From IMG/VR virus record IMGVR_UViG_2548876934_000005: a stretch of DNA of 8,961 bases, one strand, 5' to 3'. The notes beneath the pieces are model-generated. The model ran no database searches. It saw nothing but the letters and a program-made list of their open reading frames with translations, and was not told the origin of the DNA. A program made the translations under genes and the position numbers. Each line of letters starts with the position of its first letter. Position 1 is the first letter of the stretch. The DNA is from a virus. Taxonomy: Duplodnaviria; Heunggongvirae; Uroviricota; Caudoviricetes. Shown piece by piece: positions 1,009 through 8,060 of this stretch.

Positions 1009-1083
1009 GTCCTCTTAGTTAAATGGATATAACGAGCCCCTCCTAAGGGCTAATTGCAGGTTCGATTCCTGCAGGGGACACCA
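1009..1083 (+). tRNA. argW: tRNA-Arg (anticodon CCU)
   Basis: 75-nt sequence folds by hand into a cloverleaf: acceptor GTCCTCT/AGGGGAC, D-stem GTTA/TAAC, anticodon stem AGCCC/GGGCT, anticodon loop CTCCTAA with anticodon CCT at 1042-1044, T-stem GCAGG/CCTGC, T-loop TTCGATT, discriminator A and encoded CCA. Confidence 0.93.
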
Positions 1084-1084
1084 T
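1069..1084 (+). repeat. attL core: 16-bp direct repeat CTGCAGGGGACACCAT overlapping the 3' end of argW
   Basis: Exact 16-nt identity with 8045-8060. The copy here is the last 15 nt of the tRNA plus one base. This is the typical arrangement for an integrase-mediated insertion into a tRNA 3' end. Confidence 0.8.
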
Positions 1085-1178
1085 TTATCAGTTCGCTCCC
1101 ATCCGTACCAGTCCGCAAAATCCCCTGAATACCAAGACTTCCGTAGATTCACAGTTCGTCATGGTTCGCGTCAGATCG

Positions 1179-1208
1179 TTGACAGCCGCACTCCATGACG
1201 GGTAAAAA
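1179..1208 (+). promoter_or_regulatory. Candidate integrase promoter: -35 TTGACA (1179-1184), -10-like TAAAAA (1203-1208)
   Basis: Perfect -35 consensus read in the sequence with a weak -10 about 18 nt downstream, 37 nt upstream of the integrase ATG. Weak call. Confidence 0.25.
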
Positions 1209-1221
1209 GTGGATAAAATAA

Positions 1222-1245
1222 TTTTACCCACCGGATTTTTACCCA
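1222..1245 (+). promoter_or_regulatory. Two direct copies of TTTTACCCA (1222-1230 and 1237-1245), the second ending at the integrase start codon; candidate recombinase or RDF binding sites
   Basis: Exact 9-mer repeated with 15-bp phasing in the attL arm, seen directly. The functional assignment is inference from known IntS/TorI control of the intS promoter in KplE1. Confidence 0.3.
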
Positions 1246-2402
1246 TGCTCACCGTTAAGCAGATTGAAGCAGCAAAGCCGAAAGAAAAACCATACCGCCT
1301 TCTCGATGGTAATGGCCTGTATCTTTATGTCCCTGTATCCGGGAAAAAGGTATGGCAGCTTCGCTACAAGATTGACGGTAAGGAAAAAATACTGACCGTA
1401 GGAAAATATCCGCTAATGACTTTGCAGGAGGCAAGAGATAAAGCATGGACCGCGAAGAAAGACATCTCGGTTGGCATCGATCCGGTAAAGGCGAAAAAGG
1501 CTTCGTCTAACAACAATTCCTTTAGTGCGATTTACAAAGAATGGTACGAGCACAAGAAGCAAGTATGGTCAGTAGGGTATGCGACTGAACTTGCAAAAAT
1601 GTTTGATGACGACATTTTACCTATCATCGGCGGCCTTGAAATTCAAGATATTGAGCCGATGCAACTGCTGGAAGTAATCCGCAGATTTGAAGATCGCGGT
1701 GCAATGGAGCGAGCAAATAAAGCCCGCAGAAGATGCGGAGAGGTTTTCCGTTACGCTATTGTCACTGGTAGGGCTAAATATAACCCGGCACCTGACCTTG
1801 CTGACGCCATGAAGGGATACCGCAAGAAAAACTTCCCGTTTCTTCCTGCAGACCAGATCCCGGCATTTAACAAAGCACTGGCAACATTTTCAGGAAGCAT
1901 CGTATCGCTCATTGCGACCAAAGTTTTACGCTACACAGCCCTCAGAACAAAAGAGCTTCGTTCCATGCTATGGAAGAACGTCGATTTTGAAAACAGGATT
2001 ATCACCATCGACGCCAGTGTGATGAAGGGACGCAAAATTCATGTGGTTCCTATGTCAGACCAGGTGGTTGAACTTCTCACTACGCTAAGCTCAATCACCA
2101 AACCAGTATCAGAGTTTGTTTTTGCCGGTCGCAACGATAAGAAGAAGCCAATCTGCGAGAACGCGGTACTGCTTGTGATCAAACAAATCGGCTATGAAGG
2201 TCTGGAAAGCGGTCACGGATTCAGGCATGAATTCAGCACGATTATGAACGAGCACGAATGGCCTGCTGACGCTATTGAAGTGCAACTGGCACATGCCAAC
2301 GGCGGATCTGTGCGCGGAATATACAACCATGCTCAGTATCTCGATAAGCGCAGAGAAATGATGCAGTGGTGGGCGGATTGGCTTGATGAAAAGGTAGGGT
2401 GA
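1245..2402 (+). CDS. intS: Tyrosine recombinase, P4-type prophage integrase (IntS-like)
   Basis: 385-aa ORF from ATG 1245 (the ORF track extends to a GTG at 1209). N-terminal arm-binding domain motif LLDGNGLYLYV...WQLRYK. C-terminal catalytic residues are visible (ALRTKELRS, GHGFRHEFS, RGIYNHAQY). Adjacent to tRNA attL in the same orientation as K-12 intS. Confidence 0.9.
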   Translation: MLTVKQIEAAKPKEKPYRLLDGNGLYLYVPVSGKKVWQLRYKIDGKEKILTVGKYPLMTLQEARDKAWTAKKDISVGIDPVKAKKASSNNNSFSAIYKEWYEHKKQVWSVGYATELAKMFDDDILPIIGGLEIQDIEPMQLLEVIRRFEDRGAMERANKARRRCGEVFRYAIVTGRAKYNPAPDLADAMKGYRKKNFPFLPADQIPAFNKALATFSGSIVSLIATKVLRYTALRTKELRSMLWKNVDFENRIITIDASVMKGRKIHVVPMSDQVVELLTTLSSITKPVSEFVFAGRNDKKKPICENAVLLVIKQIGYEGLESGHGFRHEFSTIMNEHEWPADAIEVQLAHANGGSVRGIYNHAQYLDKRREMMQWWADWLDEKVG

Positions 2403-2533
2403 TCGACCTTAACAACTATCGAATAGCACAAAGACTTGCGGGCCAGTGCAAGGCGTTGTGTGTCTCAGTTTTGTCTAATTAGTTAAGTAACTTGTCGATC
2501 TATCGATACATGAATGATAGGCTCCTCAACATC

Positions 2534-2556
2534 AATTGTTTTGCAAAAAAACAATT
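2534..2556 (+). promoter_or_regulatory. Perfect 9-bp inverted repeat AATTGTTTT / AAAACAATT (5-nt spacer) 22 nt upstream of the 2578 start codon; candidate operator
   Basis: Arms 2534-2542 and 2548-2556 are exact reverse complements. No T-run follows on the + strand, so it is unlikely to be a + strand terminator. Confidence 0.3.
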
Positions 2557-2577
2557 AAATGAAAACAGGTAAGTTAC

Positions 2578-7477: not shown

Positions 7478-7532
7478 CCTCGCACTCGCGGGGATTTCTT
7501 TTATCTGAACTCGCTACGGCGGGTTTTGTTTT
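7478..7532 (+). terminator. Tandem pair of hairpin + T-run elements: CTCGC-ACTC-GCGGG (7479-7492) + ATTTCTTTT, and CTCGC-TACG-GCGGG (7510-7523) + TTTTGTTTT
   Basis: Two near-identical 5-bp stems (one G-U pair each), each followed by a T-rich run, 31 nt apart, read directly. Likely tandem intrinsic terminators for the 7176 gene. Confidence 0.45.
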
Positions 7533-7545
7533 ATGGAGATGATAA

Positions 7546-7713
7546 ATGCACTTCCGAGTCACAGGAGAATGGAATGGAGAGCCATTCGACAGGGTTATCG
7601 AAGCAGAGGACATCAACGACTGCTATAACCACTGGATGATATGGGCGCAGATAGCGCATGCAGACGTAACCAATATTCGAATTGAAGAACTGAAAGAACA
7701 CCAAACCGCCTGA
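7546..7713 (+). CDS. Small hypothetical protein (55 aa), positionally equivalent to the short ORF preceding torI in K-12 KplE1
   Basis: Absent from the supplied ORF track, presumably because of its length. ATG at 7546 with GGAG 8 nt upstream; translation MHFRVTGEWNGEPFDRVIEAEDINDCYNHWMIWAQIAHADVTNIRIEELKEHQTA. The TGA stop lies in the loop of a strong terminator. My memory that this resembles K-12 ypdJ is unverified. Confidence 0.45.
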   Translation: MHFRVTGEWNGEPFDRVIEAEDINDCYNHWMIWAQIAHADVTNIRIEELKEHQTA

Positions 7714-7726
7714 TGGCGGTTTTTTA
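7704..7726 (+). terminator. Rho-independent terminator: stem AACCGCC / GGCGGTT, loop TGAT, T-run TTTTTT
   Basis: Perfect 7-bp stem with 4-nt loop followed by T-run, seen directly. The stop codon of the 7546 ORF sits in the loop. Confidence 0.75.
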
Positions 7727-7735
7727 TTACCTGAT

Positions 7736-7751
7736 TTGCAGGTTCGATTCC
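7736..7751 (+). repeat. tRNA-like fragment TTGCAGGTTCGATTCC, identical to the T-arm of argW (1054-1069), upstream of torI
   Basis: Exact 16-nt match to the argW T-stem/T-loop region but lacking the acceptor 3' end. About 300 bp upstream of the attR core. Confidence 0.4.
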
Positions 7752-7770
7752 CTATTCGGAGATAGCACTC

Positions 7771-7971
7771 ATGCAACACGAACTACAGCCTGATTCCCTG
7801 GTTGATTTGAAATTCATCATGGCTGATACTGGCTTTGGTAAAACCTTCATCTACGACCGGATTAAGTCCGGCGACCTGCCAAAAGCCAAAGTTATCCACG
7901 GACGAGCAAGATGGTTATATCGTGACCATTGTGAATTCAAAAATAAGCTCTTAAGCCGCGCCAATGGGTAA
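7771..7971 (+). CDS. torI: TorI-like excisionase / recombination directionality factor (winged-helix; Tor response-regulator inhibitor)
   Basis: 66-aa ORF, GGAG 9 nt upstream of the ATG. The translation MQHELQPDSLVDLKFIMADTGFGKTFIYDRIKSGDLPKAKVIHGRARWLYRDHCEFKNKLLSRANG matches my recollection of E. coli TorI. It lies just inside attR, as in K-12 KplE1. Confidence 0.85.
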   Translation: MQHELQPDSLVDLKFIMADTGFGKTFIYDRIKSGDLPKAKVIHGRARWLYRDHCEFKNKLLSRANG

Positions 7972-8044
7972 AATAGCGGGTAAAATATTCCTCACATCTA
8001 AAAAACACCATTCCAATCAATCCCCTGCCACCTCAAGTAGATGT

Positions 8045-8060
8045 CTGCAGGGGACACCAT
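8045..8060 (+). repeat. attR core: second copy of the 16-bp repeat CTGCAGGGGACACCAT
   Basis: Exact identity with 1069-1084. Flanking sequence is unrelated to the tRNA body, as expected for attR. Confidence 0.8.

Follow-up and report, generated by a model that had tools for sequence, protein, structure and literature searches.

The 8,961-nucleotide stretch of DNA filed as IMG/VR virus record IMGVR_UViG_2548876934_000005 (Caudoviricetes; hereafter the window) carries a 7.0-kb defective prophage at the tRNA gene argW, bounded by two exact copies of a 16-bp attachment core, with the integrase gene intS at its left end and torI, which encodes the recombination directionality factor (RDF) and TorR inhibitor TorI, at its right end. 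We conclude, with a probability of about 0.85, that this element arose recently, by deletion, from a P22-like temperate phage (Lederbergvirus; HK620/Sf6/Kapi1-type) integrated at argW. It belongs to this family by descent, through the sister prophages in draft genomes L018 and L022, and not as a functional member.

Deletion junction, sister prophages and age

The internal deletion is marked by a 3-bp microhomology (ATA, 6151-6153), where the alignment to the tailspike gene ends at position 6153 and the alignment to ea22 starts at position 6151. The junction is seen in three independent comparators, with the tailspike gene cut at approximately codon 463 of 790 (intact gene, 789/790 aa) and ea22 cut at nucleotide 129 of the strain S1 gene. 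Window 1-6153 is also present, at 99.6% identity, in the draft genomes L018, L020 and L022, where the tailspike gene continues to its full length (789 aa, P22 head-binding domain included); beyond it, L018 has SieA and P22 gp16, gp20 and gp7, and L022 has gp16. The window contains no P22 head-binding domain and no gp7, gp20 or gp16, the tailspike being present as a C-terminal fragment only. The annotated open reading frames (ORFs) at 6077/6131-6973(+) and 5170-6243(-) were rejected as artefactual read-through extensions across the junction.

The tailspike fragment shows no difference (984/984 nucleotides) from the full-length copies of L018 and L020, and because this fragment is functionless, the deletion must be very recent and too young for decay. 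Within the lineage, one mismatch was found in the ~20 kb compared, and the decay steps comprise the ~31-32 kb deletion, a 2.5-kb deletion in a neighbouring island and an IS421 insertion. In this one lineage, the structure of the locus has decayed fast while point mutations have hardly accumulated. L020 (GCA_050018035.1, locus 12593-21008) is a decay variant of the same prophage, in which the full tailspike and nin/Dam genes are followed directly by genes of the neighbouring island (a 251-aa ORF and AlpA); it has a single core copy and has lost torI, attR and the island integrase gene int2 together.

The gene order of the element (int, conversion genes, the tailspike gene on the reverse strand, then ea22, ea8.5 and xis) is that annotated in Sf6 and HK620, and Kapi1 has the same order with attP between int and xis (PMC8787464). 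With attP between xis (torI) and int, integration would leave attL-intS at one prophage end and torI-attR at the other. A single illegitimate recombination at the microhomology would then have joined the middle of the tailspike gene to the 5' part of ea22, removing the morphogenesis, injection, lysis, replication, immunity and recombination genes and sparing what lay outside the end points, namely attL-intS, orf335 and the acyltransferase gene AT3, half of the tailspike, the truncated ea22, ea8.5, orf55 and torI-attR. The genomes of active phages that carry this torI-attP module measure 38.3-39.4 kb, from which we infer that ~31-32 kb, about 80% of the genome, was lost.

A naturally small integrative element, such as a satellite or cassette that borrowed a KplE1-type module, would also be small, with an intact int/xis pair and moron-type cargo, and an unrelated small island with its own integrase does adjoin this one. 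However, a single breakpoint truncates two genes of the element, the fragments are identical to full-length genes of sister prophages at the same site, and Pfam, PHROG and PADLOC scans found no replication, primase, packaging-redirection or regulatory genes. We therefore consider such an origin very improbable.

Attachment module and predicted excision

The core CTGCAGGGGACACCAT occurs exactly twice in the window, both times on the + strand (1069-1084 and 8045-8060), with a start-to-start distance of 6,976 bp, so that the two identical 16-bp att repeats ~7 kb apart reported in the first-pass annotation are correct to the base. No copy was obtained by chance in 200 shuffles with two mismatches allowed. 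The same 16-bp core lies at both corresponding junctions of the K-12 MG1655 prophage KplE1 (CPS-53) and is the published KplE1 core (PMC2951348); an Rfam scan of the window found the tRNA alone. At least four groups of draft-assembly contigs agree with the window at every position (100%), including the repeats, and the complete genome NZ_CP148385.1 carries the same element with an IS421 insertion as the only difference; the identical element is present in L015, L016, L017 and L021. Sequencing error in the repeats is thereby excluded, which settles the earlier concern that they might prove different on resequencing. A collapsed or chimeric contig joining the ends of a full prophage could be suspected from the identity of the window to a draft-assembly contig (L016), but NZ_CP148385.1 and no fewer than four independent contig groups show the identical junction (100%), leaving an assembly artefact with next to no probability.

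IntS is identical to K-12 IntS at 383 of 385 residues, and both changes (R71K and E385G) lie outside the catalytic domain, while intS DNA is 95.9% identical to that of K-12. TorI is unchanged from K-12 (66/66 aa) and matches PDB 1z4h (Tor inhibition protein) at 6.6e-43. The TorI pentamers, intS promoter hexamers and TAAA-containing arm-type sites were defined according to Panis et al. 2010 (PMC2951348). Five positions of the attL arm differ from K-12 (1132, 1137, 1138, 1150 and 1170), none of them in a pentamer, promoter hexamer or TAAA motif (0/5). The window has five copies of the arm-type site GGGTAAAA (0.33 expected), three of them in the arm of attL and the other two in that of attR; the latter arm is identical to K-12 at 69 of 73 positions (7972-8044), and HK620 has an annotated attP repeat at the equivalent position. 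intS adjoins attL and is transcribed away from the core, whereas torI lies at the far end, 74 nt before the attR core. The core duplication, the gene layout, the five TorI sites with the arm sites and the intact IntS and TorI frames are those of a KplE1/HK620/Sf6-type argW module, and the earlier description of intS and torI as intact with flanking arms was accurate.

Among the sites compared, the known requirements for IntS/TorI excision (core, pentamers, promoter and arm-type sites) are, as judged from the sequence, all present, and it is plausible that the element is excisable. IntS and TorI, together with host IHF and DnaJ, would recombine the two cores to release a 6,976-bp circle that would neither replicate nor be packaged, and excision would thus cure the element. 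In the resting state, intS would repress its own promoter inside attL, as it does in K-12. Loss of the early-left promoter, together with the three terminator-like hairpins upstream of torI, should leave torI unexpressed.

Several points weigh against this account of a single deletion that left an excisable element. Of 22 mismatches to L018, 20 cluster in 1100-1650 (the attL arm and the 5' third of intS), most of them synonymous, whereas the remaining 4.5 kb has only 2 differences; this patch looks like homologous recombination from another argW element, and the history would then not be strictly that of a single event. The size of the lost segment is estimated from relatives, no complete ancestor sequence having been recovered. 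Excision of this particular element is a prediction from its sequence, and the DNA to the right of the attR core is that of the second island rather than the native dsdC-side flank, which could affect core-type IntS binding.

A T-arm-like 16-mer upstream of torI

The conserved right-hand module begins with a segment containing the 16-mer TTGCAGGTTCGATTCC (7736-7751), which is identical to the argW T-arm at 1054-1069, the segment directly before the core. The two 16-mers flanking torI jointly spell the last 31 nt of argW. TTGCAGGTTCGATTCC is kept in K-12, Sf6 and HK620; the loci compared include L002 (11776-11791), L010, L011 and L012. At the equivalent place in Erwinia phage Midgardsormr38 stand two tandem copies of CAGGTTCGATTCCC. 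In HK620 and Sf6, the region corresponding to 7726-7764 is annotated as the cII-activated pI promoter with a cII box, and the TorI pentamer GTTCG lies within the 16-mer. The 16-mer may be a vestige of the tRNA, an operator for the RDF or a promoter element.

Retention of intS and torI

The first-pass annotation read the retention of intS and torI as selection for regulatory and cargo functions. This inference has nothing to support it, because the useless tailspike fragment in the same element is equally intact and the intactness of intS and torI consequently says nothing about selection. Moreover, any internal deletion would spare both genes, since prophages of this group have them as their outermost genes. 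The retention of intS and torI is fully explained by position and recency, and not by demonstrated selection.

Across independent argW elements, intS shows dN/dS values of 0.01-0.08 and torI shows no non-synonymous changes at dS of 0.05-0.16, and both genes are annotated as intact in each of the independent remnants of 3.9, 7, 10.2 and ~14.7 kb. Such strong purifying selection across the family would agree with a domesticated mini-prophage, in which selection kept intS, torI (as TorR inhibitor) and cargo while phage functions were purged, and K-12 cryptic prophages, including CPS-53, have been associated with stress tolerance (PMC3105296). However, the purifying selection may have acted wholly in infectious phages, as Kapi1, HK620 and Sf6 carry the torI-attP-intS module at 96-97.5% DNA identity, and the mutation-free tailspike fragment leaves no time for selection to show in the remnant itself. 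Losses also occur among the variants, with intS frameshifted in CPww7, torI, attR and int2 missing from L020 and no annotated torI in TUM13936, and excision of a non-replicating circle would be a liability for the host, not an asset. Given in addition the automatic sparing of both end genes, we regard domestication as unlikely and retain the view of a recent deletion derivative, which makes the locus a cautionary case in which an intact integrase and excisionase in a tiny remnant mimic domestication.

Relation to KplE1 and other argW elements

The element had been described as a miniaturised KplE1-like prophage. The part of this description that stands concerns the module at the ends, which is of KplE1 type; the interior is unrelated. 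A blastn comparison with K-12 KplE1 gave matches only at 1-2476 (97.5%) and 7721-8062 (97.7%), and the 5.2-kb interior at 2477-7720 had no match and is unlike yfdG-yfdT. The two prophages share the argW site, the 16-nt core, IntS (383/385) and TorI (66/66), the pentamers, the attL promoter and the arm-type sites, with module DNA 96-97.7% identical, and both are defective, with no repressor and no morphogenesis genes. They differ in size (7.0 kb against 10.2 kb), in the right neighbour, which is an island here and not dsdC, and in the interior, which in KplE1 holds gtrABS-type yfdGHI, tail-fibre fragments and yfdK-T and in this element orf335, AT3, the tailspike C-terminus and lambda-like ea genes. 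The element was acquired independently of that of K-12, as indicated by a host flank (1-1083) without a single difference from K-12 (100%) beside an intS at 95.9% identity.

HK620, Sf6 and Kapi1 also combine int, an O-antigen modification gene and a tailspike, with an O-antigen acetylase beside int in Sf6, but these phages are complete (38-39 kb), and the tailspike and conversion genes here are of a different type. Among remnants, that of strain S1 (~14.7 kb) shares orf335, AT3 and the tailspike with the present element (99.1% identity) and has the tailspike in full, along with Arc, an injection gene and many IS1 copies, whereas that of TUM9812 (~3.9 kb) has only intS, AT3, three small ORFs and torI. 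Both resemble the present element in having intS and torI at the ends and an acyltransferase beside intS, with deletion end points that are independent. Small excisable remnants that keep intS and torI were thus already known: KplE1 (10.2 kb), which lacks a repressor, is the published case of a small remnant that can be excised by supplying TorI (PMC2951348), and the 3.9-kb element of TUM9812 is smaller still than the one described here.

In an even sample of 60 rows of hits, approximately one third of the sampled chromosomes have intS at argW. Small joined remnants account for fewer than ~98 of 5,875 records, counting those with both ends within BLAST joining distance. The pair H8/H9 was considered as a 3.6-kb mini-element and rejected, as the pieces run torI-core-intS in CPww7, with a frameshifted intS, in the manner of an attP-like or tandem junction. 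In this locus (L007, 4450-6059), torI, the core and the frameshifted intS are contiguous and form an attP-like or tandem-prophage junction in a larger prophage region.

Interior genes and possible roles

Pfam and PHROG searches of every ORF in 1085-8044 detected no repressor, replication, lysis, terminase or capsid gene, in agreement with the earlier statement that nearly all phage functions are lost. The features of the window are listed in Table 1. orf335 sits in the serotype-conversion slot and belongs to no known family in Pfam or PHROG. Its predicted fold is a confident match to a galactose-mutarotase-like beta-supersandwich (GH174-like), with invariant residues FTGG-H, YYGxQ and KxY and a nearly invariant W125; its relatives occur in E. 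coli, Citrobacter and Salmonella, and distant ones include one from Paenibacillus. The AT3 product matches Pfam PF01757 (3.5e-35) over its full length (residues 3-337 of 357) and PHROG 3333, O-acetyltransferase (8.7e-72). With a full-length AT3 membrane domain beside a phage int, it is of the Oac type by sequence and would act on the O-antigen; oac1b (PMC3630932) was rejected as a precedent, as its integration site is different. The tailspike and conversion genes matched no phage-collection record in a high-identity megablast search (roughly at least 85%). Window 6266-7728 aligns with phage lambda 29103-30287 at 96.4% identity.

Table 1 Features of the window, in order of position.
Feature	Position	Strand	Remarks
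yfdC, chromosomal gene	1-933		opens the window
argW, tRNA-Arg(CCU)	1009-1083	+	ARAGORN; Rfam tRNA 63.4 bits; 75/75 identical to K-12 argW
attL core CTGCAGGGGACACCAT, 3' end of argW	1069-1084	+	exact repeat; same core as K-12 KplE1
attL arm	1085-1244	+	155/160 identical to K-12
TorI pentamers GTTCG/GTCCG/GATCG in attL arm	1091, 1111, 1154, 1164, 1174		all five present
intS promoter inside attL arm	-35 TTGACA 1179-1184; -10 TAAAAA 1203-1208		same as K-12
IntS arm-type sites GGGTAAAA in attL arm	1200-1207(+), 1222-1229(-), 1237-1244(-)
intS, tyrosine integrase, intact	1245-2402	+	385 aa; Pfam Arm-DNA-bind_3, Phage_int_M, Phage_integrase
orf335, secreted 335-aa protein, putative carbohydrate-active moron	2578-3585	+
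AT3 (Acyl_transf_3), membrane O-acetyltransferase, Oac-like lysogenic conversion gene	4067-5140	+	alternative start 4031
segment between AT3 and tailspike remnant (12-bp duplication of 5151-5162)	5147-5166
tailspike remnant, C-terminal ~327 codons	5170-6153	-	lacks head-binding N-terminus; matches 431-778 of 779-position phrog_22294
deletion junction	6151-6153		3-bp microhomology
ead/Ea22-like gene	6151-6973	+	lacks first ~128 nt; Pfam Ead_Ea22 match only from profile position 41
lambda ea8.5-like gene	7176-7457	+	Pfam Lambda_ea8_5 1.1e-48
two terminator-like hairpins	7476-7495, 7507-7526
orf55, 55-aa lambdoid early-left ORF	7546-7713	+	phrog_676
terminator-like hairpin	7703-7722	+	immediately upstream of torI module
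start of conserved right-hand module	7726-7764	+	contains TTGCAGGTTCGATTCC
torI, RDF and TorR inhibitor, intact	7771-7971	+	66 aa
attR arm	7966-8044	+	two direct IntS arm-type sites GGGTAAAA at 7966-7973, 7978-7985
attR core CTGCAGGGGACACCAT	8045-8060	+	exact repeat; doubles as left core of second island
int2, integrase of second argW island in tandem	8224-8961	+	outside the mini-prophage; Pfam Arm-DNA-bind_3, Phage_int_M only

The orf335 and AT3 products probably still modify the cell surface. The practical value of the locus is limited; its cargo may alter the O-antigen and the phage susceptibility of the host lineage. One speculative idea, secondary to the serotype switch considered next, is that orf335 serves AT3 as a hitherto undescribed partner in O-antigen processing. 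The TorI proteins of HK620 and Sf6 are reported to be 100% identical (Panis et al., PMC3509656). Because infecting phages of the HK620/Sf6/Kapi1 type encode such a TorI, superinfection could supply the RDF in trans and excise the element, curing the host of the O-acetyltransferase and orf335 genes. Alternatively, an incoming phage could recombine with the remnant through the shared intS and torI/ea22 homologies, an exchange at which the 20-mismatch patch at 1100-1650 hints. A role of the remnant as a phage-triggerable serotype switch and module donor is put forward very tentatively, and we consider it doubtful.

The TorI sequence also matched the PADLOC model mad1 (mads_1; E = 7.6e-14), which probably reflects a common excisionase-type winged helix and not a role in defence. 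Apart from this mad1-like match, PADLOC found no defence family among the proteins scanned, a set without IntS and the tailspike fragment.

Second argW island

Beyond position 8060, the window continues into a second argW island and not into argW/dsdC chromosome, as had been assumed for the right junction, so that the attB product differs from the one predicted. After excision, attB would read argW-core-second island, and the design of an excision PCR must reckon with this tandem arrangement. The int2 product is 31% identical to IntS. In this genome, a 2,485-bp deletion with its junction at 8956/8957 cuts int2 off after codon 245, and the window ends 5 nt past this point; an intact int2 of 428 aa is present in L017, L021 and MB07011. 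The GGTAA at the end of the window was considered as an IS1 end and proved instead to be the junction of this 2,485-bp deletion.

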